Shown: positions 449 through 20,106, counted from the stretch's first letter. The stretch: DNA of 37,642 bases from Clostridia bacterium (GCA_017451975.1 JAFTNI010000218.1:1-37642); one strand, 5' to 3'. The notes: generated by a model not told the origin, from the sequence alone. A program made the numbers and translations.

Positions 449-481
449 AAAAAGGGATGTCTTTGTGTGACATCCCTTTTT
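449..481 (-). terminator. Rho-independent terminator of the icd-containing operon
   Basis: aaagggatgtc/gacatcccttt: 11-bp stem. On the minus strand it is followed by tttttattttt, just past the stop codon at 487. Confidence 0.8.
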
Positions 482-486
482 CTATA

Positions 487-1662: not shown

Positions 1663-1665
1663 TTT

Positions 1666-3600
1666 TTAGTTCTCCTTGTCTTTCGTGTAGTTGAGAAGGC
1701 CGCCTGCGAGGAGTATTTCTCTCTGGCGAGCCGTTGCGGCGAGAACGAGTGTAACCTCTGCGCCGTTTGTTTTGTCTACGAGCGTGAGCTCTTCTTTTTC
1801 GGCTATGCCGTCTGCAAAGCCTTTGATTTCTATATCGTCACCCTGCGCGATCTTTTCGAAATCGTCGGGGTTTTTGAACGTGAGGGGGATAATGCCGAAG
1901 TTTATAAGGTTTGCCATGTGAATGCGCGCAAAGCTCTTTGCTACAACTGCTTTTATGCCGAGGTAAAGCGGAACGAGCGCCGCGTGCTCACGGGAAGAGC
2001 CCTGGCCGTAGTTTGCGCCGCCAACGATAATGCCGCCGCCGAGCGCCTTTGCTCTTTCGGGGAACTCTTTATCGCAAACGGTAAAGCAGAACTCGGAAAG
2101 CTTCGGAACGTTGGAACGGTAGGGGAGTATTTTTGTGCCCGCGGGCATGATGTGGTCTGTGGTGATATTATCGCCAACCTTGAGCACCGTTTTGCAAGCG
2201 AGGTCGCAAGCGGGGCGAACGCCCTTGGGAATGGGTTTTATATTGGGGCCGCGTTCAACATCTACGCTCGCCGCTTCTTCGGGGCTTGCGGGCATTTCAA
2301 TGAGGTTATCGTTAACCTTCATAACCTCGGGCAGCGCGATTTCGGGCGCTTTGCCGAGCGTGCGCGGGTCTGTGAACACACCGGTGATAGCGGAAGCCGC
2401 CGCCGTCTGAGGGGAAACGAGGTAAACCTTTGCATCTGCCGTGCCGCTTCTTGCTTCGAAGTTGCGGTTGAACGTACGAAGGCTTACACCTGCAGATTTC
2501 GGGGAGAAGCCCATACCGATGCAGGGGCCGCAGGCGCACTCGAGAATTCTTGCGCCAGCGCTTACCATATCGGTGAGCGCACCGCAATCTGCGAGCATGG
2601 AAAGAACTTCTTTAGAGCCGGGGGAAACAGACATTTCTACGTCGGCGTGAACGGTGTTATCCTTGAGAATAGAGGAAACCGTGAGCATATCGAGCATAGA
2701 GGAGTTTGTGCAGGAGCCAACGCAAACCTGGTCGAGCTTCATGCCTGCAAGCTCGGAAACGGGCTTTACGTTATCGGGGCTGTGGGGGCAAGCCGCCAGG
2801 GGAACGAGCTCGGAAAGGTTTACTGTAAGGTGCTCGTCGTAGCGTACGTCGTCATCGGGGGAAAGGGGAACGAAATCGCATTCTCTCTGCTGAGATTTAA
2901 GGAAAGCGAGCGTAACCTCGTCGGAGGGGAAGATGGAGCTTGTAGCGCCGAGCTCTGCGCCCATGTTTGTTATGGTCGCTCTTTCGGGAACGGAAAGCGT
3001 TTTAACGCCTTCGCCGTAATATTCAACAACCTTGCCAACGCCGCCCTTAACACCGAGCTTGGAAAGTACGTAAAGTATAACGTCCTTCGCGCCTACGAAA
3101 TCGGGGAGCTTGCCTGTAAGCTCAACGCCTATTATCCTGGGCATATTGATGTAGTAAGCGCCGCCGCCCATTGCAACTGCAACATCGAGGCCGCCCGCAC
3201 CCATTGCGAGCATACCGAGGCCGCCCGCCGTGGGCGTGTGGCTATCGGAGCCGATGAGTGTTTTGCCGGGAATGCCGAAGCGCTCGAGGTGAACCTGGTG
3301 GCAAATACCGTTGCCGGGGCGCGAGAAGCGCACGCCGTGCTTTTTTGTAACCGTCTGTATATATCTGTGGTCGTCTGCGTTTTCAAAGCCTGCCTGAAGC
3401 GTATTGTGGTCTATGTAAGCCACGGAAAGCTCTGTTTTAACTCTTTCCGTGCCCATTGCTTCAAACTGGAGGTATGCCATAGTGCCCGTAGCGTCCTGCG
3501 TGAGCGTCTGGTCTATGCGAAGGCCTATTTCCGCGCCGGGTATCATTTCGCCGGAAATAAGGTGGTTTTTGATAATTTTCTGAGCTAAAGTAAGTCCCAT
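1666..3600 (-). CDS. aconitate hydratase (clostridial ~645-aa type)
   Basis: Aconitase catalytic and swivel domain motifs (IGSDSHT, GSCTNS, CGPCIG, ANYGQGSSREHAA). Start chosen at ATG 3600 (GGAAAGGA RBS, 1 nt after the GntR stop). The ORF is open to an alternative ATG at 3621. Confidence 0.9.
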   Translation of the reverse strand: MGLTLAQKIIKNHLISGEMIPGAEIGLRIDQTLTQDATGTMAYLQFEAMGTERVKTELSVAYIDHNTLQAGFENADDHRYIQTVTKKHGVRFSRPGNGICHQVHLERFGIPGKTLIGSDSHTPTAGGLGMLAMGAGGLDVAVAMGGGAYYINMPRIIGVELTGKLPDFVGAKDVILYVLSKLGVKGGVGKVVEYYGEGVKTLSVPERATITNMGAELGATSSIFPSDEVTLAFLKSQQRECDFVPLSPDDDVRYDEHLTVNLSELVPLAACPHSPDNVKPVSELAGMKLDQVCVGSCTNSSMLDMLTVSSILKDNTVHADVEMSVSPGSKEVLSMLADCGALTDMVSAGARILECACGPCIGMGFSPKSAGVSLRTFNRNFEARSGTADAKVYLVSPQTAAASAITGVFTDPRTLGKAPEIALPEVMKVNDNLIEMPASPEEAASVDVERGPNIKPIPKGVRPACDLACKTVLKVGDNITTDHIMPAGTKILPYRSNVPKLSEFCFTVCDKEFPERAKALGGGIIVGGANYGQGSSREHAALVPLYLGIKAVVAKSFARIHMANLINFGIIPLTFKNPDDFEKIAQGDDIEIKGFADGIAEKEELTLVDKTNGAEVTLVLAATARQREILLAGGLLNYTKDKEN

Positions 3601-6032: not shown

Positions 6033-6061
6033 TTGACAAATGTTTTCCGATGGTGTAAAAT
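6033..6061 (+). promoter_or_regulatory. SigA-type promoter upstream of rpiR-like gene
   Basis: TTGACA, 17-nt spacer, TAAAAT. About 65 nt upstream of the ATG at 6126. Confidence 0.55.
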
Positions 6062-6125
6062 AAAGAAAAATGAAAATTTTTTTCATTTTCGCGATAAAAG
6101 GATTTTACGAAAGCGAGGATATTTG

Positions 6126-6965
6126 ATGAATACCACTATTCTCCAAGCTCAGCTTTTGTATAATGAAATGGGTAAATCCGAAAAAAAGGTGGCAGATTGG
6201 CTTATTTCCCACCCGGGCGATAATTTGCCGATGTCTATTTCCGAGCTTGCAGAGCTTTGTGAAAGCTCGGAATCCACTATAGTGCGTTTTGCCAGAAGGC
6301 TCGGATTTTCGGGCTACAGGGAGCTTAAAATTTCCGTGGCGGGCGAGCAGGAAAAAAAGGTTGTGCTCCCCACTATAGACGAAAACGACTCCTGCTTTGA
6401 AATACTCGAAAAAATATGCAACGATGCATACCTTTCCTTTGAGCGCACAAAACGCACCATTGCCCCCGAAAATATTGCCGCCGCCGCAAACCTTATTGCG
6501 AGCGCGCGCAAAACCGTGCTTATCGGCCTCGGCTCCTCCGCCTCCGTCGCAAATGATGCTGCGAACAAGTTTCTTCGCGCGGGCTACGAAGCCTATTCCT
6601 ATGGCGACACGCATATGCAAATGATAGCCGCCTCACATATGAGGGAGGGCGACGTTATGATAGGCATTTCGCAATCGGGCGCATCGAAGGATATAGTAGA
6701 GGCGCTGAAGTTTGCCAAAAGCCGCGGCATTTCCACAATTTGCATAACCGGCACGGACCGTTCACCCATTATGAAGCAGAGCGATATTGTGCTGCTGACC
6801 GACACAGAGGAAACGAAGCACAGTTCACTTGCGTTAAGCTCCCATCTCTCGCGCCTCGTCGTTATAGACGCTCTTTGCTACTACCTCGTTTACAGAAACG
6901 AGCAGAGCGGCGATGTCGATGGCGAGAACCAGAAAAGTCTTAAATCGAAACGTGTAGACGAATAA
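6126..6965 (+). CDS. RpiR/MurR-family transcriptional regulator (HTH_6 + SIS phosphosugar-binding domain)
   Basis: HTH (ISELAELCESSESTIVRFARRLGFSGYRELK) followed by an SIS domain (VLIGLGSSASVA ... ISQSGASKD). Start moved to ATG 6126, which is preceded by GAGGA. Confidence 0.85.
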   Translation: MNTTILQAQLLYNEMGKSEKKVADWLISHPGDNLPMSISELAELCESSESTIVRFARRLGFSGYRELKISVAGEQEKKVVLPTIDENDSCFEILEKICNDAYLSFERTKRTIAPENIAAAANLIASARKTVLIGLGSSASVANDAANKFLRAGYEAYSYGDTHMQMIAASHMREGDVMIGISQSGASKDIVEALKFAKSRGISTICITGTDRSPIMKQSDIVLLTDTEETKHSSLALSSHLSRLVVIDALCYYLVYRNEQSGDVDGENQKSLKSKRVDE

Positions 6966-7015
6966 GGCTTACTTTACGAAAGCAAGCCTCAACATATAAA
7001 GTGGAGGAATTGTTT

Positions 7016-8227
7016 ATGAAAATTTTGGTTATCAACTCAGGCAGTTCATCGCTTAAATATCAGCTTTTTGATATGACCACGGGCGATGTGCTTGCCAAAG
7101 GCCTTTGCGAACGCATCGGCGGCGAGGTGGGCATTATCACCCACAAGCGCCCCGGTTTCGAGCCGTATAAGGCAGAACCCGTGCTCCCCGACCACGGCGC
7201 CGCGCTTTCACTCGTGCTCGGCATTATTACTGATAAGGAGCTGGGCGTTATTGCAAACATCGACGAAATAGAGGCTGTTGGCCACCGCGTTGCGCACGGC
7301 GGCGAAATGCTCAAGAAATCCTCTCTCATAGGGGAAAAAGAGCTTGAATATCTCTATTCCATCGTGGATATCAACCCCTTGCACGGCCCGCCCGCAATAA
7401 AGGGCATAGAGGCTTGCAAAAAGCTTTTGCCTACAGTGCCGCAGATAGGCGTTTTCGATACGTCTTATTACAGCACTATTCCCGAGCATACTTACATTTG
7501 CCCCCTTCCTTATGAATACTACGAAAAATATAAAATCCGCCGCTACGGCTTCCACGGCACGAGCCACCGTTTTGTAACGGGCGAATGCGCGAAGGTAATG
7601 GGCAAGCCCGCAGAGGAGCTTAAGATAATCACCTGCCATATGGGCAACGGCTCTTCCATTACGGCAACGAAATACGGCAAAGCCATAGATACCTCCATGG
7701 GATTTACGCCCCAGGACGGCGTTATGATGGGCACACGCTCCGGCGCTATAGACCCCTCGGTGCTTACTTATATTATGAAGGCAGAGGGCATTTCTGCGCA
7801 GGAAATGGACGATATCATCAACCGTAAATCAGGTCTTCTCGGCATTTCCGGCGTTTCCAACGACTGCCGCGAAATTTGGGAAGCCGCAAACGCAGGCAAC
7901 AAGCGCGCAGAGCTCGCAATGAAAATGCTTGTAGGCGGTGTTAAAAAGATAGTAGGCTCTTACCTTGCAGAAATGAACGGCGCAGACGCGATAGTGTTTA
8001 CGGCGGGCATAGGCGAAAACGATTACCTCGTTCGCCAGCTTGTATGCGAGGATATGGACTACTGCGGCATAAAGATAGACGTAGAAAAGAACGCAAAAGC
8101 CCCCAAGGGCACGTTTAACGATATTACCGCTCCGGGTGGAAAGGTGAAAATCTTTGTCATTCCCACGGACGAGGAATATATGATAGCAAAAGATACCCAG
8201 ACCATTGCACAAAATCTTGTAAATTAA
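7016..8227 (+). CDS. ackA: acetate/propionate kinase
   Basis: MKILVINSGSSSLKYQLFD, GFHGTSH, and a family-typical length of 403 aa. GGAGGA RBS. The GTG start at 7001 was rejected. Confidence 0.9.
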   Translation: MKILVINSGSSSLKYQLFDMTTGDVLAKGLCERIGGEVGIITHKRPGFEPYKAEPVLPDHGAALSLVLGIITDKELGVIANIDEIEAVGHRVAHGGEMLKKSSLIGEKELEYLYSIVDINPLHGPPAIKGIEACKKLLPTVPQIGVFDTSYYSTIPEHTYICPLPYEYYEKYKIRRYGFHGTSHRFVTGECAKVMGKPAEELKIITCHMGNGSSITATKYGKAIDTSMGFTPQDGVMMGTRSGAIDPSVLTYIMKAEGISAQEMDDIINRKSGLLGISGVSNDCREIWEAANAGNKRAELAMKMLVGGVKKIVGSYLAEMNGADAIVFTAGIGENDYLVRQLVCEDMDYCGIKIDVEKNAKAPKGTFNDITAPGGKVKIFVIPTDEEYMIAKDTQTIAQNLVN

Positions 8228-8250
8228 TTAAATGAAAGGAAATAAAAATC

Positions 8251-9054
8251 ATGATCTCATCTTTCGAAATTAAAAAGGAAATATGCGAAGTAGGTCACAA
8301 AATTTATGCTGAAGGCTTCGTAGCTGCAAACGACGGTAACATTTCCGTTAAGGTTAGCGACAACGAATACTACTGCACACCTACAGGCGTATCCAAAGGC
8401 GACCTCACACCCGATATGATTATCCGTATCGACGGCAAGGGTAACAAAATCGAAGGCAGACTCAACCCCTCCTCCGAAATCAAAATGCACCTCCGTGTTT
8501 ACCAGGAAAGACCCGACGTAAACGCAGTTGTTCACGCTCACCCTCCCGTTGCAACAGCTTTCACAGTTGCAGGAGTACCGCTTGACAAATACATCCTTCC
8601 CGAAGCAGTTCTTACTATAGGCTTCGTTCCCACTTGCGAATACGGCACACCTTCCACAATGGAAATTCCGGATTCTCTTATGCCCTACATTCAGAACCAC
8701 GATGCGTTCCTTCTCAAGAACCACGGCGCTCTTACAGTAGGTAACACACTTAAAAAAGCTTTCTTCACAATGGAAGAAGTTGAATTCAACGCTAAGATCT
8801 GCAAATATGCTATGGAACTCGGCAGGGTTGAGGAAATCCCCTGCGACCAGCTCGAAAAGCTTATGGAGCTCCGCAAGAAAATGCGTATCCCCGGCAAGCA
8901 CCCCGGCTGCAAAACTTGCAAAAACCTCGGCACACCCGAATGCAAATGCAAACAGAACGCTGTTACACCCAGCGGCATAGTAACAAGCACGGGCGCAGAC
9001 GAAGCACTTGTTGCTGAAATCACAAAGAAAGTTCTCGCAGCTCTCGGAAAATAA
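8251..9054 (+). CDS. class II aldolase (fuculose/rhamnulose-1-phosphate aldolase family) with C-terminal Cys-rich linker and encapsulation peptide
   Basis: Class II aldolase/adducin motifs (NDGNIS, HAHPP, LLKNHG). There is a roughly 55-aa C-terminal extension ending in the amphipathic helix EALVAEITKKVLAALGK. Confidence 0.85.
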   Translation: MISSFEIKKEICEVGHKIYAEGFVAANDGNISVKVSDNEYYCTPTGVSKGDLTPDMIIRIDGKGNKIEGRLNPSSEIKMHLRVYQERPDVNAVVHAHPPVATAFTVAGVPLDKYILPEAVLTIGFVPTCEYGTPSTMEIPDSLMPYIQNHDAFLLKNHGALTVGNTLKKAFFTMEEVEFNAKICKYAMELGRVEEIPCDQLEKLMELRKKMRIPGKHPGCKTCKNLGTPECKCKQNAVTPSGIVTSTGADEALVAEITKKVLAALGK

Positions 9055-9101
9055 TTCCCGTACATACCGTGGAATAGATTTTTTGAAAGGAGAGAACAAA
9101 A

Positions 9102-10559
9102 ATGGCAATTAACTGGACAGACGCGCAAATTGAAGAGATAGTTAAAAAGGTCGTTGCGGAAATCGGCGGCGAGCCGAAAAAAGAAGCGCCGGCATATAAC
9201 TCTGAAAGCTATAACGGCAGAAAGTTTATCGGTATCTTCGAAGATATGAACGACGCTATAGAGGCCGCAAACGCAGGCTACAAGGCTATTCGCTCCATGC
9301 GCGTTGAAGAAAGAGAAAAGCTCATTGAAAAGATCCGCGAAATGACGCGCGCGGAAGCCGAAATTATGGCGACCATCGGCGTGGCGGAAACGAAAATGGG
9401 CAGGGTAGACCACAAAATTGCAAAGCACCGCCTCGTTGCCGATAAAACACCCGGCACAGAGGACCTTATTTCCCAGGTTAAAACGGGCGACTGCGGTCTT
9501 ACTCTTACAGAAATGGCGCCTTTCGGCGTTGTGGGCAGCATCACACCCAGCACGAACCCCTCTGAAACCGTTATCTGCAACAGTATGGGCATGATAGCGG
9601 CGGGCAACGGCATTGTGTTCAACCCCCACCCCAATGCAATAGCAACATCCAACTACGCCGTAGACCTTATCAACCGCGCGTGCTTCGCGGCGGGCGGCCC
9701 GAAAATACTCGTGGCTTCCGTTAAAAAGCCCACGCTCGATACGGCGAACATTATGTATAAAAGCCCGCTTATAAGGCTTCTTGTTTGCACGGGCGGCCCC
9801 GGCGTTGTAAGAGCCGTGCTTGCTTCGGGCAAGAAGGCTATAGGCGCGGGCGCGGGTAACCCCCCCGTTATCGTAGATGATACGGCAGATATCCAGAAGG
9901 CGGCAAAAGATATTATCGACGGCTGCACCTTCGATAACAACCTCCCCTGCATAGCGGAAAAAGAAGTTTTCGCCTTCGATAATATCGCAGACGAGCTTAT
10001 TGCAGGTATGCTTAAAAACGGCGCTTATATGATAAACGCCGCACAGGCAGAGGAGCTTTCCAAAATAGTTCTCGTAGATACGAAGAACCCGAAAACGGGT
10101 ATCGTTAAAAAGACGGTAAGCCGCGATTGCGTAGGCAGAGATGCTAAAGTGCTTCTCGCCAAAATCGGCGTACACGTTGGCGACGAGGTTCGTTGCATTA
10201 TCTGCGAAACGAATTTTGAACACCTCTTCGTTCAGGAAGAGCTTATGATGCCTATTCTTCCCATAGTTCGCGTAAAGAATATCGACGAAGCTATAGAGAA
10301 GGCTGTAGCCGCTGAACACGGCAACAGACACACGGCTCATATGCACTCCAAGAATATCGACCATCTCACGCGCTTTGCAAGAGCCGTTGAAACGACGATA
10401 TTCGTTAAAAACGCACCTTCCTACGCCGGCATCGGCTTCGGCGGCGAAGGTCACACAACATTTACCATAGCAGGGCCTACGGGCGAGGGCATTACCTCTG
10501 CAAAGAGCTTTACCCGCTTGCGCCGCTGCGTAATGGCGGATAACTTCCGCATAATCTGA
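9102..10559 (+). CDS. pduP: CoA-acylating aldehyde dehydrogenase (PduP/EutE family) with N-terminal encapsulation peptide
   Basis: Catalytic Cys context NNLPCIAEKE and EutE/PduP-type length. N-terminus is DAQIEEIVKKVVAEIGG followed by a linker. Confidence 0.9.
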   Translation: MAINWTDAQIEEIVKKVVAEIGGEPKKEAPAYNSESYNGRKFIGIFEDMNDAIEAANAGYKAIRSMRVEEREKLIEKIREMTRAEAEIMATIGVAETKMGRVDHKIAKHRLVADKTPGTEDLISQVKTGDCGLTLTEMAPFGVVGSITPSTNPSETVICNSMGMIAAGNGIVFNPHPNAIATSNYAVDLINRACFAAGGPKILVASVKKPTLDTANIMYKSPLIRLLVCTGGPGVVRAVLASGKKAIGAGAGNPPVIVDDTADIQKAAKDIIDGCTFDNNLPCIAEKEVFAFDNIADELIAGMLKNGAYMINAAQAEELSKIVLVDTKNPKTGIVKKTVSRDCVGRDAKVLLAKIGVHVGDEVRCIICETNFEHLFVQEELMMPILPIVRVKNIDEAIEKAVAAEHGNRHTAHMHSKNIDHLTRFARAVETTIFVKNAPSYAGIGFGGEGHTTFTIAGPTGEGITSAKSFTRLRRCVMADNFRII

Positions 10560-10581
10560 TAATAGAAAGGAAGAAACGACA

Positions 10582-11829
10582 ATGGCACTCAATCCTTCCG
10601 ATATCGAAAGCATTGTTCGCAAAATCGTCAGCGAAATGGGCGCCCCCGCGGGCGGTCAGAAGCACGAATGCTGCGGCGGCCACGGCGGCGAATGCAAGTG
10701 CGGCAAGCACGGCGAGCTCCCCAAAACGGCTAAAGTTGCAATGCTTACAGATACAAAGAAAATAGAAATAAAAGAATTTGCCGTTCCCGAGCTTCAGGAC
10801 GACGATATACTTGTTAAAGTTGAAGGCGCGGGCGTTTGCGGTACAGACGTACACGAATGGAAGGGCGACCCCTTCGGCCTTATCCCCGTAGTTCTCGGCC
10901 ACGAAGGCACGGGCGAAATCATCGCTCTCGGCAAAAACGTTAAATTCGATACAGCCGGCAACCCCATCAAGGTTGGCGACAAAATCGTTACATCCGTTAT
11001 TTCCTGCGGCGAATGCAATATCTGCCGCAACCACCCCGCAAACACAAACCTTTGCGATAAGCAGGGCGTTTTCGGCCTTATCGGTCACAACGACGATAAC
11101 CCCCTCAACGGTTGGTTTGCAACACACCTTCTCATCAGAGATAAGGGTGCTACATATTTTGTAGTAAACGACCTCGACCTCTATGAAAGAATGATTCTCG
11201 AGCTTGCTTGCGTTTGCGTACACGCTCTCAAACGTGCAAACACAACAGGCCTTATGAACTTCAATACAAAGGTAGTTATCCAGGGTCTTGGCCCCGTTGG
11301 TCTTGTTATGGCTTATGTGCTCCGCGCGGCAGGTATCAACCATATCATCGCTATCGACGGCACACCCATGCGCCTTGAAATGGCTAAGAAGCTCGGTGTT
11401 AAGACTGTTATCAACTTCAGAGAAGCTACGACTATAGAGCAGAGAGTTGCTCTTGTAAAAGAAGCTTGCGGCGGCAACCTTGCAGACTTTGCATTCCAGT
11501 GCACAGGCGCTCCCTCTGCTGCAGCAGATATCTATTCCTACATTCGCCGCGGCGGCGGTATGTGCGAAATGGGCTTCTTCGTTAACAACGGCGAATACCA
11601 GATCAACCCCCACTTCACAATGTGCAATAAAGAGATCAACCTCGTTGGCTCTTGGGACTACAGCGCAGACGACTACCCCACGACAATGGCGTTCCTCCGC
11701 CAGGCTCGCGAGATGAATATTCCGATAAAGGATCTCATCACGCACACCTTCCCCCTCGATAAAATGAACGAGGCAATGGAAACAAACGTTGCTCAAGCAG
11801 GCATCAAGATTTGCTACGTTGCTGAATAA
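10582..11829 (+). CDS. Zn-dependent medium-chain alcohol dehydrogenase with N-terminal encapsulation peptide and Cys/His-rich linker
   Basis: GHEGTGEI catalytic Zn motif and CGECNICRNHPANTNLC structural Zn motif. N-terminus is PSDIESIVRKIVSEMG followed by HECCGGHGGECKCGKHG. Confidence 0.85.
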   Translation: MALNPSDIESIVRKIVSEMGAPAGGQKHECCGGHGGECKCGKHGELPKTAKVAMLTDTKKIEIKEFAVPELQDDDILVKVEGAGVCGTDVHEWKGDPFGLIPVVLGHEGTGEIIALGKNVKFDTAGNPIKVGDKIVTSVISCGECNICRNHPANTNLCDKQGVFGLIGHNDDNPLNGWFATHLLIRDKGATYFVVNDLDLYERMILELACVCVHALKRANTTGLMNFNTKVVIQGLGPVGLVMAYVLRAAGINHIIAIDGTPMRLEMAKKLGVKTVINFREATTIEQRVALVKEACGGNLADFAFQCTGAPSAAADIYSYIRRGGGMCEMGFFVNNGEYQINPHFTMCNKEINLVGSWDYSADDYPTTMAFLRQAREMNIPIKDLITHTFPLDKMNEAMETNVAQAGIKICYVAE

Positions 11830-11840
11830 GGAGAAAACCT

Positions 11841-12158
11841 ATGGCACTCGGTATGATAGAAGTATACGGATTTGCCACATCGATAGTAGTTGCAGATAAG
11901 GTTGCCAAAAGCGCCGAAGTTAAAATAGTTGCTATCGATAAAAACAAGCCGGCAAATGCCGACAAAGTAGAAGTACCGCTTGTAATGGTGGTAAAATTCG
12001 AAGGCGGCGCTTCCGAAGTGCGTGCGGCTCTTGAAGCAGGCGTGGAAGAAGCGCAGAAAAGAAACCTCTATATTGCCTCGCGCATTATCACAAGGCAATC
12101 GGAGGAAATGGAGTGGTTCGCTCACCTGAACGCACTCGGCAAAGATAAACTCAGATAA
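11841..12158 (+). CDS. divergent BMC-H shell protein (Pfam00936-like) with enlarged pore loop and C-terminal tail
   Basis: ALGMIEVYGFATSIVVADKVAKSAEV matches the BMC-domain N-terminus. The canonical KIGSG pore loop is replaced by KNKPANADKVEVP. Confidence 0.7.
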   Translation: MALGMIEVYGFATSIVVADKVAKSAEVKIVAIDKNKPANADKVEVPLVMVVKFEGGASEVRAALEAGVEEAQKRNLYIASRIITRQSEEMEWFAHLNALGKDKLR

Positions 12159-12194
12159 CCCCACAAAATTATAATATTAAGGAGATTAATAATT

Positions 12195-12470
12195 ATGCAG
12201 GAAGCACTCGGAATGGTAGAAACAAGAGGTCTTGTTGCGGCTATCGAAGCAGCAGACGCAATGGTAAAAGCAGCTAACGTTACACTTCTCGGCAGCGAAA
12301 AAATCGGCTCCGGACTCGTTAGCGTAATGGTTCGCGGCGACGTTGGCGCAGTTAAAGCAGCTGTAGAAGCAGGCGGCGACGCAGCACAGAAGCTCGGCGA
12401 AGTTGTAGCACTTCACGTAATTCCCCGCCCCCACGGCGATGTTGAAAAGCTTCTTCCTAAGCTTGACTAA
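12195..12470 (+). CDS. BMC-H shell protein (PduA/EutM-like)
   Basis: [27 protein letters not shown]...[25 protein letters not shown] is a canonical hexamer sequence. Confidence 0.92.
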
Positions 12471-12492
12471 TTCGAAAATTAGGTAAAAAGTT

Positions 12493-12765
12493 ATGGAAGC
12501 AATAGCGTTACTCGAAGTTCAGGCGCTTGTTGCGGCTATCGCAGGACTTGACGCGATGGTGAAAGCGGCAAACGTTAAGCTCATTCACGTAGAGAAACGC
12601 TTGGGCGGACGACTTGTAACAGTCGTTGTCGAAGGCAGTGTGTCGGACGTTACGGCGGCGCTGGAGGCAGGCAAGGTTGCGGCAGCCCAGGTGGGCAACG
12701 TAAAGCTTGCAGAGGTTATCGCACGTCCGCACCCCGACGTTATGAGCTTTCTTACAACAGGCTGA
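12493..12765 (+). CDS. BMC-H shell protein, second type
   Basis: BMC-domain pattern ([49 protein letters not shown]). Confidence 0.85.
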   Translation: MEAIALLEVQALVAAIAGLDAMVKAANVKLIHVEKRLGGRLVTVVVEGSVSDVTAALEAGKVAAAQVGNVKLAEVIARPHPDVMSFLTTG

Positions 12766-12812
12766 TGCCTGAAAAATAAAAAAACAAAAATTTTTAAATG
12801 GAGGAAATAAAA

Positions 12813-13085
12813 ATGGAAGCACTCGGAATGGTAGAAACAAGAGGTCTTGTTGCAGCTATCGAAGCAGCAGACGCAATGGTAAAAGCAGCTAACGTTGTTC
12901 TTATCGGCAGCGAAAAAATCGGCTCCGGACTCGTTAGCGTAATGGTTCGCGGCGACGTTGGCGCAGTTAAAGCAGCTGTAGAAGCAGGCGGCGACGCAGC
13001 ACAGAAGCTCGGCGAAGTTGTAGCACTTCACGTAATTCCTCGTCCTCACACAGACGTTGAAAAGCTTCTTCCTAAACTCGGCTGA
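12813..13085 (+). CDS. BMC-H shell protein, near-identical paralog of 12195..12470
   Basis: About 95% nucleotide identity to 12198..12470. Start set at ATG 12813 (GGAGGAAA RBS); the ATG at 12798 lies inside the RBS. Confidence 0.9.
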
Positions 13086-13109
13086 TATTAAACCGATTTA
13101 AGGAAACCG

Positions 13110-13140
13110 TTCTTCAAGGGGCTTTCCGCCCCTTGAAGAA
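13110..13140 (+). other. perfect 13-bp stem-loop directly after the shell-gene block
   Basis: ttcttcaaggggc-tttcc-gccccttgaagaa. A second hairpin (tgccgc-aag-gcggca) follows at 13150..13164. Confidence 0.7.
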
Positions 13141-13227
13141 ATGAGGTTTTGCCGCAAGGCGGCAGAAAAATAATAGTGTTCTACGTTATGAACAGAAAGT
13201 CTTAATTTAATGAAGTTTTGCAATCTG

Positions 13228-13296
13228 TAGGGGCCGACGTCCTCGGCGGTCCGTTTCAGATAAATGCGGGTGGACCGCCGAGTACGCCGGTCCCTA
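13228..13296. repeat. GC-rich ~69-nt imperfect palindrome (REP/MITE-like element)
   Basis: The arms taggggccgacgtcctcggcggtcc and ggaccgccgagtacgccggtcccta pair over 25 positions: 22 Watson-Crick pairs, 2 mismatches and 1 G-U. Its GC content contrasts with the A/T-rich flanks. Confidence 0.6.
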
Positions 13297-13384
13297 TAAA
13301 AAATAGCGTCGCTCCATTAACTTCGAAAAAAACCCCGCTTTTGCGGGTTTACATACAAAAATAAATTGCAGAGGAGCCAAAAAT

Positions 13385-14047
13385 ATGGAATATTCATCTG
13401 CGGATATTGCCGCAATCGTTCAAAAAATTATAGCAGGCATGGGTGCGGAAGAAACGGCAGCAGGAAACGGCGCAGACGTGCCGATAGGCGTTTCCAACCG
13501 CCACGTTCACCTTTCTCGCGAGCACCTCGACGTGCTTTTCGGCAAGGGCTATGAGCTTACAAAGGCGAAAGACCTTTCCCAGCCCGGTCAGTATGCGGCA
13601 AACGAGGTCGTAACCATCGTTGGACCCTCGCTTCGCCCCATAGAAAAAGTAAGAGTTCTCGGCCCCATTCGCTCCGCCTCCCAGGTGGAAGTGTCTATGA
13701 CAGACTCTTACGTTCTCAAAGTTAAGCCACCCGTTCGCGAATCGGGCAAAATAGAAGGCTCTGCGCCTATTACGATGATAGGCCCGAAGGGCGTTGTAAC
13801 GCTTACGGAAGGCTGCATTATCGCCAACCGCCACATACATATGAGCCTTGCAGACGGTGAAAAATACGGCGTTACCGACGGCGATTACGTTACCGTTGAC
13901 GTAGAGGGCAAGGGCAAAAAAACCCGTTGGTACGGCGTTCAGGTTCGTGTGAACAAAGCCTTCGCGCTTGAAATGCACGTTGACACAGACGACGCAAACG
14001 CTGCGGGCATAGGTAACGGAAGCCTTGTTAAAATCGTAAAAGAATAA
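13385..14047 (+). CDS. pduL: PduL-type phosphotransacylase with N-terminal encapsulation peptide
   Basis: Two PduL repeats (GVSNRHVHLS and IANRHIHMS). N-terminus is SADIAAIVQKIIAGMG. Confidence 0.9.
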   Translation: MEYSSADIAAIVQKIIAGMGAEETAAGNGADVPIGVSNRHVHLSREHLDVLFGKGYELTKAKDLSQPGQYAANEVVTIVGPSLRPIEKVRVLGPIRSASQVEVSMTDSYVLKVKPPVRESGKIEGSAPITMIGPKGVVTLTEGCIIANRHIHMSLADGEKYGVTDGDYVTVDVEGKGKKTRWYGVQVRVNKAFALEMHVDTDDANAAGIGNGSLVKIVKE

Positions 14048-14067
14048 GCTCGGTAAGGAGAAGCGTT

Positions 14068-14322
14068 ATGTTAAAGGGACTTGTTATAGGAAACGTCGTT
14101 TCCACAAAGAAGCAGGAAAGCCTTACCGGCAGCAAATTTCTTGAAGTAAGAATTATCGAAAACAATCGCGAAACAGATAAATATATCGTTGCCGTAGACA
14201 GCGTTGGCGCAGGCATCGGCGAGGAAGTGCTTATCACTACGGGCTCCAGCGCCCGTTTGGCGCTCCGAAACCAGTTTGAGCCCGTAGACGCAGTTATTGT
14301 CGGCATAGTAGACCCGAAATAA
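14068..14322 (+). CDS. eutN: BMC-P pentameric vertex protein (EutN/PduN/CcmL family)
   Basis: 84 aa, with GNVVSTKK...FLEV...AVDSVGAGIGEEVLITTGSSAR typical of the EutN/CcmL fold. Confidence 0.9.
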   Translation: MLKGLVIGNVVSTKKQESLTGSKFLEVRIIENNRETDKYIVAVDSVGAGIGEEVLITTGSSARLALRNQFEPVDAVIVGIVDPK

Positions 14323-14374
14323 ATATTGCGCTTGCGCAGTAGTTTAAGGAAAAATTATTGAAAAGGAGCAAACC

Positions 14375-15808
14375 ATGTCGGATAAAATGGATAATGTTTT
14401 GTCCCAAGAGGGAAGATACGCTATCTACCGCAAGCCTGCACCCGCCGCCGATACTTATGAAGGCATTCTCAGAATGACCGCACAAAGAATCGAATTCAAG
14501 GAGTGCGTTAAGGTTGCGGGTATAGTCGGTGCCGGAGGTGCCGGGTTCCCGTCCTATGCAAAAATTGCAGACGGTGTGGATACGGTGCTTATAAACGGTG
14601 CAGAATGTGAATCTTTGCTTTATACGGACTATACAATTATGCGCGATGAACTTCGCAAGGTTGTGGAGGGCATAGAATATGTCATAGAAAATACGACGGC
14701 GCGCCGCGGTCTGCTCTGTGTAAAGGAGCATACCGGAAAAAAACTCGGCTTTTTTGACGGCCAGAAGCTTTCCGAACATACGGCAGTGAAATTTTTGCCC
14801 GACGTTTATCCCATGGGTGACGAAATAAGCCTTATATACGAGGCAACGGGCAGAAGCATAAAAGCGGGCAACCTCCCCGTTTCCGTGGGAGTTATCGTTT
14901 ATAACGTTGAGACAGTGTTCAACATACGTGAATCGTACCGCCACAGAATTGCCGTTACGCATAAGTGGCTTACCATAGGCGGCAACACACCGAAAAAATT
15001 GGTGATCTGCGTGCCCGTGGGTACTTATGTGAAAGATATTTTTGCCAGATACGGCATAGAAGTGCCCGATGGCAACGTAGTGCTGGACGGCGGCCCTGCT
15101 ATGGGCAAAATTATAAACGCAGAACGCGCTACGGTTACAAAAACCACAAAATCGCTTCTCATTTTACCCGAGAAGCTTCCCATAATACAATCCAGGCTCA
15201 CGGGGCTTGACGTTCAGCTCCGCAGGGGCTCCTCTGCTTGTTGCCAATGCACGCGCTGCACAGACCTTTGCCCCCGCAACCAGCTCGGCTATCCGCTTGA
15301 ACCGCACAAGCTTGTGCGAGTAGCAGAGGGTATAGGTACAGTGGATGCAAAGCTATACGCTACCGCGACGATGTGCTGCGGATGCGGTATATGCGAGCAC
15401 GCCGCTTGCTGCCAGGGAATATCCCCCAGAGCTATGATATTCAAGCTCAAGGAAGAGCTTGGAAAAGCAAAAACAAGATATATTTCCGACGATACCATCG
15501 CTCCGCGCGATACTCGCCCCTACCGTATGATCTCCAGCGAGCGCTGGAAAGAGATCATCGGGGTATCCTCCTTCGACGGCGAGGCGAAATATGCCGGAGG
15601 CTTTGAACCCGATAGGGTAGAGATATTTATGGCGGGGCATATAGGTGTTCCATCCATTCCGATCGTCGAACAAGGTCAGCACGTTTCCGCGGGCGCAAAG
15701 ATAGCGAACGCGGCAGACGGACTTTCGCTCCCGCAGTATGCGTCTATTTCGGGCGTGTGCGTGTTTGTGGACAAAACAAAAATAATTATAGAAAGGGACA
15801 AACAGTAA
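14375..15808 (+). CDS. pduS: PduS/RnfC-like Fe-S flavoprotein (NADH-binding, SLBB, two 4Fe-4S motifs)
   Basis: GAGGAGFPSYAKI nucleotide/FMN motif plus two Cys clusters (CCQCTRCTDLCP and CCGCGICEHAC). Confidence 0.8.
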   Translation: MSDKMDNVLSQEGRYAIYRKPAPAADTYEGILRMTAQRIEFKECVKVAGIVGAGGAGFPSYAKIADGVDTVLINGAECESLLYTDYTIMRDELRKVVEGIEYVIENTTARRGLLCVKEHTGKKLGFFDGQKLSEHTAVKFLPDVYPMGDEISLIYEATGRSIKAGNLPVSVGVIVYNVETVFNIRESYRHRIAVTHKWLTIGGNTPKKLVICVPVGTYVKDIFARYGIEVPDGNVVLDGGPAMGKIINAERATVTKTTKSLLILPEKLPIIQSRLTGLDVQLRRGSSACCQCTRCTDLCPRNQLGYPLEPHKLVRVAEGIGTVDAKLYATATMCCGCGICEHAACCQGISPRAMIFKLKEELGKAKTRYISDDTIAPRDTRPYRMISSERWKEIIGVSSFDGEAKYAGGFEPDRVEIFMAGHIGVPSIPIVEQGQHVSAGAKIANAADGLSLPQYASISGVCVFVDKTKIIIERDKQ

Positions 15809-15809
15809 T

Positions 15810-16355
15810 ATGCAGAATGCCGTAGGTATAATCGAACTGAAAAGTATAGCCAAGGGCGTTGAAGCTTGCGACTCCGCGCTTAAAAGCGCGGGCATAAGCC
15901 TTGTAAGCGCTCATCCGGCGTGTCCCGGAAAATATGAAATAATTATTACGGGGGCTATTGCCGACGTATCCGCGGCGGTTTCCCACGTAAAGGGAAGATT
16001 TGAAACAACCATAGTGGATACTTCTGTTATGGGCAGAATCGACCCACAGGTGGTAACGGCGCTTTTCGGCACTGAAGCCACAAAGAAAAGCGGCTCGCTC
16101 GGCGTTATAGAAACGTTTTCTGCGGCGAGCGCAATAAAAGCGGCGGATATAGCCGTTAAAACGGCAAACGTCGCTATATATGACCTGCGCGTTTCGCGCG
16201 GTATGGGCGGCAAGGGTCTTGTTATGATAACGGGCGACGTTGGCGACGTCAGCGCTTCCGTAGAGGCGGGCGCGGAATACGCCGCGGGCCTGGGCTTGCT
16301 TATGAACAAATCTGTAATAGCCGCACCGCACAAAGAGCTTTGGGAACAAATTTAA
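15810..16355 (+). CDS. pduT: BMC-T tandem-domain shell protein (PduT-like)
   Basis: 181 aa containing two BMC domains (AVGIIELKS... and SLGVIETFS...). A Cys sits in the first-domain pore loop (AHPACPGKY). Confidence 0.85.
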   Translation: MQNAVGIIELKSIAKGVEACDSALKSAGISLVSAHPACPGKYEIIITGAIADVSAAVSHVKGRFETTIVDTSVMGRIDPQVVTALFGTEATKKSGSLGVIETFSAASAIKAADIAVKTANVAIYDLRVSRGMGGKGLVMITGDVGDVSASVEAGAEYAAGLGLLMNKSVIAAPHKELWEQI

Positions 16356-16376
16356 AGTGAAGCAGGGTAATTTATC

Positions 16377-18905
16377 ATGGAAAATATAAAATTTGTTATA
16401 GAAAAAAGCGCGCGCATAGATAAGCTTATTTCGGCAATGTATGAAAAGCTGCCCGAAATTGAAGCAGACCGCGGCGTGCTTGTTACCGAAAGCTATAAAG
16501 CAACAGAGGGCTTGCCCCTTGTAAAGCGCAGAAGCGCCGCTTTTGCGCACATACTCCGCAATATTCCCATAGTTATCCGCGAAAACGAGCTTATCGCGGG
16601 AAGCACCACGGTTACCCCCCGCGGATGCCAGGTTTTCCCCGAATATTCTTATGAATGGCTTGAAGCGGAGTTTGATACCGTTGCAAAAAGAGAAGCAGAC
16701 CCCTTCTACATTTCCGAGGAAACGAAGGCGAAGCTTCGCGAGGTTTACCCTTATTGGAAGGGCAAAACCGTTTCCGACCTTGCAAAAGCAAATATGGCGC
16801 CCGAGGCTTACGACGTATTTATGAACCACGGTATTTTTACCGTAGGCAACTACTTCTACAACGGCATAGGCCACGTTTGCGTTCAGTACGATAAGGTTAT
16901 TAACTTTGGCTACGAAGCAATTATAAACGAAGCTAAGGAAGAGCTTGCAAAGCTTTCCTTTGGCGACGGCGATTACGTGACGAAGAGAAACTTCCTTGAT
17001 GCCGTTATCGAAAGCTGTGAGGCTGTTATAGAGTACGCTCACCGCTACTCTGTGCTTGCAATCCATATGGCTGAAAAAGAGCACGATATGGGCAGAAAGA
17101 TGGAGCTGAAGCGTATAGCAGATGCTTGCGCGCACGTTCCCGAAAAGGGCGCGAGAACCTTCTTCGAGGCTTGCCAGAGCTTCTGGTTTATACAGATGCT
17201 TTTTCAGACGGAATCAAGCGGCCACTCCATTTCCCCCGGACGTTTCGACCAATATATGTACCCATTCTACAAGAAGGACAAGGACGATGGCGTTATCTCT
17301 ATAGAAGAGGCGCAGGAGTTTATAGACAATATCTGGGTTAAGCTCAACGATATAAACAAGGTTCGCGATGCGGCAAGCGCAGAGGGCTTTGCGGGCTACG
17401 GTCTTTTCCAGAACCTTATTGTCGGCGGCCAGGACATTTACGGTATGGACGCTACAAACGACCTTTCCTATATGTGCCTTGAAGCGGCAATGCACGTTCC
17501 GCTTCCCCAGCCCTCCATTTCCATTCGCGTATGGAACGGCTCGCCCAAATCCTTGCTTATAAAAGCGGCGGCGCTTACCCGTACGGGTACGGGCTTGCCC
17601 GCATACTACAACGACGAGATCATTATTCCCTCGATAATGGCGCGCGGGCTCACGCTCGAGGATGCGCGCGACTACTGCATAATCGGTTGCGTTGAACCGC
17701 AGAAGGCGGGAAAGACCGATGGTTGGCACGATGCGGCGTTCTTCAATATGTGCCGCCCGTTGGAGCTCGTTTTCTCCGACGGTGTCGATAAGGGCAAGCA
17801 GATCGGCCCCAAAACGGGCGACGTGCTTGAAATGAAAACGTTTGAAGAATTCTACGATGCTTACAAGAAGCAATCTGCCTATATGGTAGAGCTTATGGTA
17901 AACGCAGATAACGCCGTAGACGCGGCGCACGCTATGCGTTGCCCCTTGCCCTATCAATCTTGCATGGTTGACGATTGCATAAAGCGCGGTAAATCCTTGC
18001 AGGAAGGCGGCGCTATCTATAATTTCACAGGTCCCCAGGGCTTCGGCATTGCCAATATGACCGATGCGCTCCTTGCCGTTCGCGAGCTTGTTTTCGAAAA
18101 GAAGCTCGTTACTATGGCAGAGCTTAAGGCGGCGCTTGAAAATAACTACGGCAAGGGCTTGCGCGGCTATGACGCAGAGCGCCTTACCGCAGACATAGCG
18201 CAGAAAATAGCCGAAAGCGGTTCTACTGTAAACGAGGACGTTATAAAGGCTATATACGGCGCGGTTACAACGGGCGAATATTTGCCCGACGGCGCAAGAA
18301 TGAGATATGACGAAATTCTTTCGCTTATCGCAGGCGTGCCGAAGTACGGCAACGATATACGCGAGGTTGACCTTTTTGCCCGCGACGTTGCTTACACATA
18401 TACAAAAGAGGTTGAAAAATATAAAAACTACCGCGGCGGTACATACCAGGCGGGGCTTTACCCCGTTTCCGCAAACGTGCCGCTCGGCGCTCAGACGGGC
18501 GCAACGCCCGACGGCAGACTTGCCTATACGCCTATTGCAGACGGCGTAGGCCCCGTTTCGGGCAGCGATACGCGCGGCCCCACGGCGACGGCAAACTCTG
18601 TTGCCAAGCTCGACCACGGTATTGCAAGCAATGGTACGCTTCTTAACCAGAAGTTCCACCCCAGCGCGCTTGCAGGTATGGCGGGGCTTGAAAAGTTTGT
18701 TTCGCTCATTCGCGGCTACTTCGACCAGAAGGGTATGCACGTTCAGTTCAATGTAATCAACCGCGAAACCTTGCTCGATGCGCAAAAGCACCCCGAAAAC
18801 TACAAAACGCTTGTTGTTCGCGTTGCGGGCTACAGCGCGCTTTTCACAACGCTTTCGCGCTCGCTCCAGGACGATATCATAAACAGAACGGAACAGGGAT
18901 TTTGA
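16377..18905 (+). CDS. glycyl radical enzyme, diol-dehydratase/lyase class (probable B12-independent 1,2-propanediol dehydratase)
   Basis: 842 aa. Active-site GCVEP (Cys-x-Glu) and C-terminal glycyl radical motif VVRVAGYSALF...QDDIINRTE. The substrate is inferred from the co-encoded aldolase. Confidence 0.85.
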   Translation: MENIKFVIEKSARIDKLISAMYEKLPEIEADRGVLVTESYKATEGLPLVKRRSAAFAHILRNIPIVIRENELIAGSTTVTPRGCQVFPEYSYEWLEAEFDTVAKREADPFYISEETKAKLREVYPYWKGKTVSDLAKANMAPEAYDVFMNHGIFTVGNYFYNGIGHVCVQYDKVINFGYEAIINEAKEELAKLSFGDGDYVTKRNFLDAVIESCEAVIEYAHRYSVLAIHMAEKEHDMGRKMELKRIADACAHVPEKGARTFFEACQSFWFIQMLFQTESSGHSISPGRFDQYMYPFYKKDKDDGVISIEEAQEFIDNIWVKLNDINKVRDAASAEGFAGYGLFQNLIVGGQDIYGMDATNDLSYMCLEAAMHVPLPQPSISIRVWNGSPKSLLIKAAALTRTGTGLPAYYNDEIIIPSIMARGLTLEDARDYCIIGCVEPQKAGKTDGWHDAAFFNMCRPLELVFSDGVDKGKQIGPKTGDVLEMKTFEEFYDAYKKQSAYMVELMVNADNAVDAAHAMRCPLPYQSCMVDDCIKRGKSLQEGGAIYNFTGPQGFGIANMTDALLAVRELVFEKKLVTMAELKAALENNYGKGLRGYDAERLTADIAQKIAESGSTVNEDVIKAIYGAVTTGEYLPDGARMRYDEILSLIAGVPKYGNDIREVDLFARDVAYTYTKEVEKYKNYRGGTYQAGLYPVSANVPLGAQTGATPDGRLAYTPIADGVGPVSGSDTRGPTATANSVAKLDHGIASNGTLLNQKFHPSALAGMAGLEKFVSLIRGYFDQKGMHVQFNVINRETLLDAQKHPENYKTLVVRVAGYSALFTTLSRSLQDDIINRTEQGF

Positions 18906-18913
18906 TTTAGGTT

Positions 18914-18945
18914 TTAACCGTGTGCCCGAAAGGGCGCACGGTTAA
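18914..18945 (+). terminator. strong hairpin after the GRE gene (possible partial terminator or mRNA stabiliser)
   Basis: ttaaccgtgtgccc-gaaa-gggcgcacggttaa: 14-bp stem with one G-U and a GAAA loop. The TTTTT run begins 8 nt downstream. Confidence 0.5.
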
Positions 18946-19092
18946 AGTGAAGTTTTTCTGCGAAGACGGCACTTAAAAGCTTATAATTTTGACCGATACT
19001 GCCGCGGGATGCTTCGCTACGCTCGAGCATGACACGCGGAAGAAGGTTTATGATTGATGCATACAAATAAAACAAATTAACGTAAAAAATCA

Positions 19093-19149
19093 CACGAAAT
19101 AAACGTCTTTTTTGAATGAAGTTCTTTGCTGAGCTTTCTTTCAAGAAAG
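19093..19149 (+). repeat. 57-nt intergenic repeat, copy 1 (ends 18 nt before the activase ATG)
   Basis: cacgaaataaacgtcttttttgaatgaagttctttgctgagctttctttcaagaaag. About 93% identical to 20033..20089. Confidence 0.85.
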
Positions 19150-19167
19150 CGAAGAGGGAGAAACGCG

Positions 19168-20089: not shown

Positions 20090-20106
20090 TGGAGGGAGGT
20101 ATTTTT

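Follow-up and report, generated by a model that had tools for sequence, protein, structure and literature searches.

Introduction

Enzymes enclosed in bacterial microcompartments (BMCs) carry an encapsulation peptide (EP) followed or preceded by a linker, an arrangement reportedly treated by Kinney et al. in 2012. Here we describe the EP linkers of a BMC operon in a 37,642-nucleotide stretch of DNA from Clostridia bacterium (GCA_017451975.1 JAFTNI010000218.1:1-37642), which was analysed as a whole and is called the window below. As in described BMC cargo, the EP is a terminal amphipathic helix of 15-20 residues, placed at the C-terminus of the aldolase and at the N-terminus of the acylating aldehyde dehydrogenase (AldDH), the alcohol dehydrogenase (ADH) and the phosphotransacylase PduL (PMC4594438). 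The linkers of this locus and its relatives differ from those of described cargo in that one part is a near-invariant module of four Cys residues (Cys4) on the aldolase and another part is a Cys cluster that tends to occur on one carrier protein per locus. The aldolase linkers compared by Aussignargues et al. (2015, PMC4594438) contain 5.5% Cys, the highest value among the rows compared in their Table 2, and this value passes without comment in the available part of the text of that paper. In the searchable literature on EPs, glycyl-radical microcompartments (GRMs), GRM3, the BMC catalogue and SPU, a scope that leaves out the 2015 GRM survey, no description was found of Cys clusters, whether conserved or movable, in the linkers of EPs. 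This agrees with the first-pass annotation, an earlier reading of the window from its sequence, which knew of no described function for Cys-rich EP linkers.

Cys motifs are known in other BMC components. The motifs of PduT and GrpU and the C-terminal tetracysteine of PduK, located at symmetry axes or on extensions, are proposed or shown to be Fe-S ligands between protomers (PMC6325248). These are located on shell proteins, whereas the motifs described here are located on cargo proteins beside the EP and move from one protein to another. GRM5 is defined by a fuculose-phosphate aldolase, a lactaldehyde reductase with PF00107 and PF08240, and PduS/PduT, and the fucose/rhamnose pathway has been assigned to it by review (PMC6325248). 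The activases of glycyl radical enzymes (GREs) contain a Cys-rich, GRM-associated ferredoxin-like insert of ~70 residues which only the activases of GRM5 lack, and it is in GRM5 that the cargo-linker cluster occurs (PMC6325248). The insert is a domain with canonical motifs, while the present cluster comprises 3-18 residues on other proteins.

Outside BMCs, the most similar elements are small metal sites. The Rad50 zinc hook (CxxC + CxxC) and the CD4/Lck zinc clasp (CxC + CxxC) are intermolecular Zn sites; in the hook and in the CD4-CD8-Lck clasp two to four Cys residues from different chains, located beside helices, are joined through one metal. These serve as a functional analogy only, without homology. 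Being so small, such motifs do not fold on their own, and this would agree with the low confidence of the structure predictions described below. The His/Cys-rich metal-binding tails of SmtA (a metallothionein), HypB, SlyD and UreE likewise contain CxC, CC and His-Gly strings of low complexity without regular secondary structure. In comparison with metallothionein-like tails, the present elements have far fewer ligands and a fixed place beside the targeting helix, and they give no Pfam match at E <= 10.

The conserved Cys4 module of the aldolase tail

The aldolase gene (8251-9054, + strand) codes for 267 residues and its product belongs to the class II (fuculose/rhamnulose-phosphate) aldolases, with a match to Pfam Aldolase_II at E = 1e-47 and a C-terminal extension. 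The Cys segment noted there in the first-pass annotation, at nucleotides 8893-8955 (8958), is present as described; it comprises residues 215-236, PGKHPGCKTCKNLGTPECKCKQN, with Cys at positions 220, 223, 231 and 233. The tail begins with the base P-G-[KR]-H-P-G (residues 214-219, 8890-8907, +), continues with the proximal Cys4 module C220-x2-C223-x-N-x-G-T-x2-C231-x-C233-K (8908-8952, +) and a distal linker that contains no Cys in the window (residues 235-250, 8953-9000, +), and ends in the EP helix ALVAEITKKVLAAL (residues 251-264, 9001-9042, +). AlphaFold2 (AF2) predicts this last segment as a helix with a predicted local distance difference test score (pLDDT) of ~85, as expected of a short terminal amphipathic helix on cargo, and its amphipathic pattern is conserved across homologues. 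The N-termini of ADH, AldDH and PduL contain a conserved arrangement in which hydrophobic residues alternate with hydrophilic ones, which is a sequence pattern only.

A set of 120 aldolase homologues, 72-97% identical, was compared. The pattern HPGC..C.{7}C.C is found in 114 of them, and the base P-G-[KR]-H-P-G is invariant in all 114. The consensus is PG[KR]HPG-C-x2-C-x-N-x-G-T-x2-C-[RKH]-C-K, where the Cys, Asn, Gly and Thr residues are invariant and the remaining positions are variable. The aldolase linker thus departs from the poorly conserved linker expected of BMC cargo, both in its Cys4 and in the register of the distal CxC described below. The invariant pair C220-x2-C223 and C231-x-C233 has the pattern of a zinc knuckle, as a pattern only. 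The near-invariance of these residues supports a functional knuckle, and the most likely identity of the Cys4 module is that of a small metal-thiolate site, with Zn or Fe-S, that is part of the aldolase tail.

The sampled loci contain two forms of the aldolase, a long tail with the Cys4 module and a short tail. In the short-tail form, which constitutes a sister clade without the module, the base is retained as PGRHPG and is followed directly by an acidic stretch (I-D-Y-G-E-E...), so that the two forms differ by a clean indel. On the tree of the ADH and aldolase cores the difference between long and short tails is a single change.

A core-proximal Cys motif is, by sequence comparison, widespread among EP-type aldolases, because CxxC or CxxCxxC is often found at the same place, directly past the core, in distant class II aldolases (38-54% identical) with an EP-like terminal helix. 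In an exhaustive profile search of representatives at 50% identity, a CxxC-type motif within 30 residues of the core was found in 19 of 39 EP-like tails and in 6 of 53 other tails (P = 1e-4). One such distant aldolase, containing CVDCPDCGCP, adjoins one BMC-H gene and three EutN genes and hence a different type of BMC.

Several further aldolases were observed alongside this comparison. Two loci (L068 and L076) combine an ADH of the same type with a divergent aldolase, ~37-38% identical to that of the window, whose linkers, CGEHSACAKCPKCGKVGCHGEC and CATCGKTVCDKSC, are Cys-rich in other ways; Cys-rich aldolase linkers thus recur in unrelated sequence forms. The aldolase P0263 (L082/L083, 10001-10807) contains CTNCGAC past the core and an EP-like C-terminal helix. 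It is located in a rhamnose-utilisation locus with RhaA, a kinase and an ABC transporter, and no shell genes were found within 10 kb. Either the genome has its shell genes elsewhere, or this aldolase bears an EP without being part of a BMC locus.

The distal stretch, which leads from the module, or in short tails from the acidic stretch, to the EP, contains exactly two Cys residues in 89 of the 114 homologues. The window aldolase lacks this pair. It is mostly CxC; in short tails it takes forms such as E-C-K-C-G, A-C-N-C and C-D-C, and in long tails it is often H-x-C-x-C-G-x-H. The CxC spacing occurs in 36 of 40 adjacent aldolase Cys pairs, and its register is kept across many species though the flanking residues vary.

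The Cys/His cluster of the ADH linker

The ADH gene (10582-11829, +) codes for a Zn-type (MDR) protein of 415 residues, a putative lactaldehyde reductase with Pfam ADH_N and ADH_zinc_N. These assignments, as well as Aldolase_II, Aldedh and PTAC for the aldolase, AldDH and PduL, are the same as those made earlier. The N-terminal EP (residues 4-19, NPSDIESIVRKIVSEM, 10591-10638, +) follows the pattern [VIL]E.[IL][VI]R.[IV] in 120 homologues, from which its helicity is inferred. A Cys/His cluster is inserted in the linker that follows, at 10660-10713 (+, residues 27-44, KHECCGGHGGECKCGKHG); the segment and its position are as first noted. It contains Cys30, Cys31, Cys38 and Cys40, thus four Cys residues as in the aldolase segment, and His28, His34 and His43. 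The linkers of AldDH and PduL in the window contain no Cys, again as first reported.

Unlike the aldolase segment, the ADH segment is not conserved. The usual ADH linker is a short Gly/Ser/Ala stretch that is hypervariable in length and sequence. Among the 120 ADH homologues, 117 of which have a readable linker, the number of linker Cys residues is zero in 74, one in 21 and two or more in 22. An insert of the window type is common only to the nearest relatives P0121, P0122, P0127 and L001, and similar inserts, H-E-C-x-C-G-G-x-C-x-C-G-x-H and also CCGSSCC, arose in other ADH lineages. The ADH linker is therefore poorly conserved, as expected of BMC cargo, yet its Cys content depends on the state of the aldolase, as described below. 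The first-pass annotation had named lack of conservation among orthologues as a reason to abandon its proposal; the aldolase half withstands this comparison, and the ADH half does not.

The string E-C-K-C, noted earlier as shared by the two segments, is indeed present in both. However, when the segments were shuffled with the same composition, some common string of four residues appeared in ~7% of the trials (P ~0.07), and E-C-K-C itself was found in 1 of 120 homologues for the aldolase and likewise for the ADH (1 of 120), so its sharing is coincidental. A Glu before the third aldolase Cys is found in 2 of the 114 motif-bearing homologues. Judged from these alignments, the aldolase and ADH segments are two different elements.

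At the DNA level, the ADH insert contains a 16-nucleotide direct repeat (10672-10687 and 10699-10714, 27 nucleotides apart) encoding CGGHG and CGKHG. It is present in two copies only, and Tandem Repeats Finder reported no repeat in the insert. The aldolase module contains a 12-nucleotide direct repeat, 33 nucleotides apart, encoding PGCK and PECK. Cys codons have a strong TGC bias, which makes their synonymous variation uninformative about selection. The repeats are weak hints that the clusters may arise by local duplication in GC-rich linker DNA.

A tendency towards one carrier per locus

For the comparison of carriers, 80 species-level loci were drawn from genome assemblies (~570 or more were available) by the ADH core, blind to the aldolase tail; in all, about 90 related loci were compared. 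A linker with at least two Cys residues was called a carrier. When aldolase distal Cys (two or more) was set against ADH linker Cys (two or more), the counts were 16 and 12 in the first row and 40 and 0 in the second (Fisher P = 4e-6). The exclusivity persists when the two clades are taken separately, with P = 5e-4 for long tails and P = 7e-3 for short tails, and with the prospective loci added P becomes 3e-7. By parsimony on the tree, the ADH gained its cluster at least six times independently, each time on an aldolase-negative background. A single switch can be followed in L043, where the aldolase has ECKGG and the ADH linker has ...SCAC..., while in its sisters L038 and L048 the aldolase has ECKCG and the ADH linker has no Cys.

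The cluster is also found on the other two cargo proteins. In three loci where both the aldolase tail and the ADH linker are free of Cys, PduL is the carrier, with the spacing C-x4-C-x4-C in L031 and C-x3-C-x2-C-x5-C in L045 and L050. The spacing C-x3-C-x2-C-x5-C is found again in the AldDH linker of L093, DNCGKGCEKCSSPLDC, a locus with no Cys in the aldolase distal stretch or the ADH linker. In a forward test on seven loci picked for a Cys-rich ADH, the aldolase had at most one distal Cys in six (binomial P = 0.02), L091 being the exception. L093 itself was one of two loci picked for a Cys-poor aldolase tail in the reverse test, and its cluster was indeed found on another cargo protein.

All four linkers could be read in 54 loci. 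Exactly one carrier is present in 42 of these, none in 9 and two in 3. If the carriers were independent, ~10.8 loci with two would be expected, and none of 50,000 permutations gave as few as observed. The carrier is the aldolase in 24 loci, ADH in 18, PduL in 4 and AldDH in 2, doubles included; the figure for ADH is too high, as a Cys-rich ADH was the reason for choosing seven of the loci. Four of the nine loci without a carrier keep one Cys at the CxC position, and no extra Cys-rich protein was obvious in the loci without a carrier, whose gene content matches that of the window. In the related loci the Cys density is 8.9% in the aldolase distal stretch, 5.1% in the ADH linker, 2.0% in the PduL linker and 1.4% in the AldDH linker, while the cores of the distant aldolase representatives contain 1.5%. 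The enrichment of Cys in the aldolase and ADH linkers exceeds chance.

The first-pass annotation had suggested a check of whether the Cys patterns of the two enzymes co-vary. Co-variation exists, but its form is mutual exclusion between the ADH cluster and the aldolase distal CxC and not partnering, and the ADH cluster alternates with those of PduL and AldDH as well. This speaks against the two window segments being partner knuckles that join the enzymes making and consuming lactaldehyde.

Two further Cys positions were observed in these loci. Many AldDH linkers contain a single Cys, and in L001-L093 the position directly ahead of the AldDH core is held in alternation by Cys, as Y-C-G-R, and by Asn, as Y-N-G-[RK], the window having Asn. 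The PduU/EutS-like protein (20107-20475, +) has a C-terminal Cys motif, CRDKLHCTVCEVTRT, in the window; in the short-tail clade this C-terminus is Y-x-C-C-[ED]-x-T-[KR]-T, and several long-tail loci have a single VC or none. The PduU-like Cys residues could be a ligand on the shell side. In the homologues from L001-L074, the C-terminal Cys or CC does not track the carrier of the cluster.

Structure prediction and comparison with known motifs

The AF2 model of the aldolase contains a confident FucA-like core (residues 1 to ~210) and a confident EP helix. Foldseek gave matches to the FucA core and to no other part. That the module and the distal CxC fold together as one six-Cys domain was considered and set aside, as AF2 leaves the distal pair disordered; this is a weak test, the model being a metal-free monomer. 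A known domain for the Cys tails was likewise rejected: Pfam gave no match there, and the matches from Foldseek and from sequence searches of the Protein Data Bank (PDB) were to the core only. The same searches gave the tails no match to a zinc-binding domain family or to a solved structure.

The spacing of a ferredoxin [4Fe-4S] site, C-x2-C-x2-C-x3-C-P, is absent from the two window segments, which have C-x2-C-x7-C-x-C and C-C-x6-C-x-C. Spacings like those of Fe-S sites are found only in relatives: distant aldolases have C-x2-C-x2-C(P), and the PduL and AldDH carriers have C-x3-C-x2-C-x5-C. As to metallothioneins, CxC, CC and His-Gly strings are present, with only 2-5 Cys residues, and there is no family match. 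The elements also differ from the PduK tetracysteine, being on cargo. Docking of the linkers to Cys residues of the bulk shell was rejected, since Cys is absent from BMC-H1 to BMC-H4 of the window, and this excludes disulfides to the bulk shell.

Gene content and surroundings of the locus

The window contains a single microcompartment operon on the + strand at positions 6033-21701. Its members include an RpiR-type regulator and an acetate kinase (+). The aldolase gene is followed by the genes for AldDH (9102-10559, +; Pfam Aldedh; N-terminal EP), ADH, four BMC-H shell proteins (11841-13085, +; Pfam BMC), the phosphotransacylase PduL (13385-14047, +; Pfam PTAC; N-terminal EP) and a BMC-P vertex protein of the EutN/PduN type (14068-14322, +), which was recognised by translation and whose homologues in related loci match PF03319. 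Next are a PduS-like Fe-S flavoprotein (14375-15808, +; Pfam Complex1_51K, Fer4_17 and RnfC_N) and a PduT-like BMC-T protein (15810-16355, +; two Pfam BMC domains) with the pore motif A-C-P-G-K-Y, the motif listed for PduT in PMC6325248. The GRE (16377-18905, +; PFL-like and Gly_radical, PF02901 and PF01228) and its activase (~19168-19953, within a listed open reading frame (ORF) at 19126-19953, +; Radical_SAM and Fer4_12) precede the PduU/EutS-like gene. The operon ends with a PduV GTPase and a ParA/MinD-like ATPase (20454-21701, +; AAA_31 and CbiA).

The locus contains seven BMC/EutN-type shell genes, and the GRE and radical-SAM activase adjoin them. Together with the upstream PF00596 aldolase, the PF00107/PF08240 lactaldehyde reductase, PduS and PduT, this is, judged from gene content, a gene set of the GRM5 type, the fucose/rhamnose glycyl-radical microcompartment. 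The GrpU pore motif G-x-C-P-Q-[NH] was not found in the window shell proteins examined. The window activase has ~261 residues (6 Cys in the listed 275-residue ORF) and is too short to leave room for the ~70-residue ferredoxin-like insert, in agreement with PMC6325248. A link between this short, insert-free activase and the cargo-linker cluster is possible. The nearest genome record is a Clostridia metagenome-assembled genome from roe-deer caecum, with an aldolase 98% and an ADH 94% identical to those of the window, and the hosts of the related loci are uncultured gut Clostridia according to record titles.

The first BMC-H protein (11841-12158, +; 105 residues) is divergent, with a Pfam BMC score of 62 bits as compared to ~100 for BMC-H2 and BMC-H4. 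It bears a C-terminal extension of ~20 residues and in related loci is also the first shell gene past ADH. The PduV and ParA/MinD-like genes are kept at the end of the operon in L008, L010, L011 and L013, and their products could be a system for positioning the organelle. Downstream of the operon are a GH95 glycoside hydrolase of the alpha-L-fucosidase family (26911-29238, -) and a GH39 hydrolase (32382-33854, +), which is consistent with glycan-derived fucose feeding the organelle. Long antisense ORFs are located at 457-3588 (+, 1043 residues), 8691-10622 (-, 643 residues) and 10510-11796 (-, 428 residues), opposite the isocitrate dehydrogenase and aconitase genes, the AldDH gene and the ADH gene. 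The ORF of 1043 residues has no Pfam match. These ORFs look like by-products of the codon composition of the strand and not genes.

Discussion

We favour the reading that a conserved aldolase Cys4 module and a movable, one-carrier Cys/His cluster bind metal and staple or tether the cargo, and we assign to it a probability of roughly one half. The ADH segment, as compared across its family, is the window lineage's enlarged copy of the movable cluster and not a feature of the ADH family. In its usual form the movable cluster is a CxC pair, often H-x-C-x-C-G-x-H, located a few residues ahead of the aldolase EP. The comparison of loci shows two Cys elements under selection, Cys enrichment, mutual exclusivity and repeated switches among four EP-tagged proteins, while metal binding, the geometry between chains and the role are inferred. 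According to this proposal, the thiolates beside the targeting helix, often with flanking His residues, would bind a metal ion or a small cluster. FucA-type aldolases are homotetramers, as established for E. coli FucA. Because a bare CxC is insufficient for a four-ligand site and aldolases of this type are homotetramers, the site is probably shared between chains. Such an inter-chain site would be located next to the EP, hence near the inner face of the shell, where it may staple or nucleate the cargo core or tether the cargo at the shell. If one site is enough, redundant copies would decay, which could give the observed exclusivity.

A number of points weigh against this reading. The threshold of two Cys residues was our own choice. 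With 9 of the 54 loci having no linker that reaches it and 3 having two, the one-carrier rule is a tendency only, and in L092, the other locus of the reverse test, no cluster was found on the other cargo proteins, so that the prediction failed there. For nine of the 54 loci the linker content was the basis of selection, and the loci come from related species, which reduces the number of independent events to ~6-10, not 54. The spacing of the movable cluster is heterogeneous (CxC, CC, CxxC, Cx3Cx2Cx5C), unlike that of a defined fold. In the AF2 models the Cys4 module has a pLDDT of 56-70, with ~68-70 at 8908-8952 of the window, and no regular secondary structure. The pLDDT is below 50 for residues 237-249 and, in a homologue with six Cys residues, for the distal CxC. 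Pfam gave no match at E <= 10 to four peptides from the tails and linkers, and a PDB sequence search with tail and linker peptides gave no match at E <= 10. The weak models and the absence of matches would fit a site that depends on a metal or on another chain, and they neither support nor exclude a metal site.

The main rival to a stapling or tethering role is an Fe-S redox relay, in which an inter-chain [2Fe-2S] or [4Fe-4S] cluster near the PduT pore would pass the electrons of PduS/PduT on to clients in the lumen, for example the GRE activase. Both the window and the related loci examined contain PduS-like and PduT-like genes. The published review counts PduS/PduT in 57 of 57 GRM5 loci, and this together with the insert-free GRM5 activases agrees with a relay (PMC6325248). 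The PduL and AldDH carriers and the distant aldolases, whose Cys spacings are of a kind usual for Fe-S ligation, point the same way, and a relay needed once per organelle would explain the single carrier per locus. However, the commonest form of the cluster is a bare CxC, unable to hold a cluster without a second chain, the window contains no canonical ferredoxin motif, and 9 of the 54 loci have no cluster with two or more Cys. In addition, a related Cys motif is found in an aldolase beside a shell gene set like that of PVM, and characterised PVM microcompartments, to our knowledge, work in aerobes. On balance we consider the relay unlikely, while giving it more weight than the other rivals. 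A heterotypic pair of knuckles, where the aldolase Cys4 and the ADH cluster share one metal and the distal CxC fills the site in cis elsewhere, would agree with the usual long-tail state of Cys4 module plus distal CxC. It would also agree with the fact that no more than one distal Cys is present in the aldolase of any long-tail locus whose ADH linker is Cys-rich (7 of 23, and also L084, L085 and L088). Short-tail aldolases, however, have no module and yet either retain the CxC or leave the cluster to ADH, PduL or AldDH, so that a partner module is dispensable; as they obey the same exclusivity, pairing of the window segments is improbable. The long-tail aldolases of L066 and L067 lack the distal CxC beside a Cys-free ADH linker, and AF2 does not pack the distal CxC on the module.

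The remaining explanations appear weaker still or no better. A metal reservoir or chaperone, storing Zn (or Fe, Co) or delivering it to the enclosed metalloenzymes, may be suggested by the fact that the two main carriers, the class II aldolase and the MDR Zn-ADH, are metal enzymes; PduL is a metalloenzyme as well, and His and Gly abound in the ADH versions (HGHHG). The word zinc occurs 11 times in a paper on the structure of PduL (PMC4784909). Such a stretch would resemble the His/Cys-rich tails of HypB, SlyD or UreE. We hold this explanation to be improbable: delivery in cis predicts a tail on each metalloenzyme, while the tails are mutually exclusive, and a bare CxC offers little storage capacity. 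Moreover, the carrier in L093 is AldDH, which is not known to be a metalloenzyme. A redox switch, with reversible disulfides within or between chains that sense or answer an oxidised lumen and so shield or control the O2-sensitive GRE pathway, would suit an organelle that contains a GRE. In other proteins, CxC and CC pairs are redox-active motifs. It seems very improbable for gut anaerobes with a reducing cytoplasm, in loci without a thioredoxin-like context, and the frequent flanking His and Gly residues favour metal ligation over disulfide chemistry. Finally, the ADH part may have no function. Gly/Ser/Ala linkers coded by GGC, AGC and GCC would yield TGC Cys codons by single mutations and slippage, and the pattern would be phylogenetic noise, in keeping with the hypervariable ADH linkers, the short direct repeat in the window insert and the heterogeneous spacing. 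Against this are the 5-9% Cys in the aldolase and ADH linkers as compared to 1.4% in the AldDH linkers of the same loci, the maintained CxC register, the few double carriers, the complementary switches and the forward prediction in six of seven loci. The conserved register, the enrichment and the complementary switches make pure drift unlikely, and we give this explanation very little credence.

An extension of these ideas, to which we attach a low probability, is that an EP-tethered inter-chain Fe-S or metal centre would be a cofactor site of the organelle at the inner shell and not of any one enzyme. Such a centre might supply in trans the auxiliary clusters missing from the GRM5 activase, or serve as the luminal contact of PduS/PduT, and evolution would then be free to place it on any convenient targeted cargo protein.

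It is important to note that EP linkers are regarded as passive, unconserved spacers, both in models of assembly and in the loading of engineered shells. The switching of the cluster between cargo families also explains why alignments of single families made the linker look unconserved. The new feature here is the combination of EP-mediated cargo targeting with an added Cys element that is apparently functional. If the signature aldolase does have such a conserved Cys module, the linker would carry out a function of its own, and the same would follow from a second cluster that is present on one of four cargo proteins and is repeatedly handed over between them. Its likely functions would be metal-dependent coalescence of the cargo, tethering to the shell, or redox wiring.

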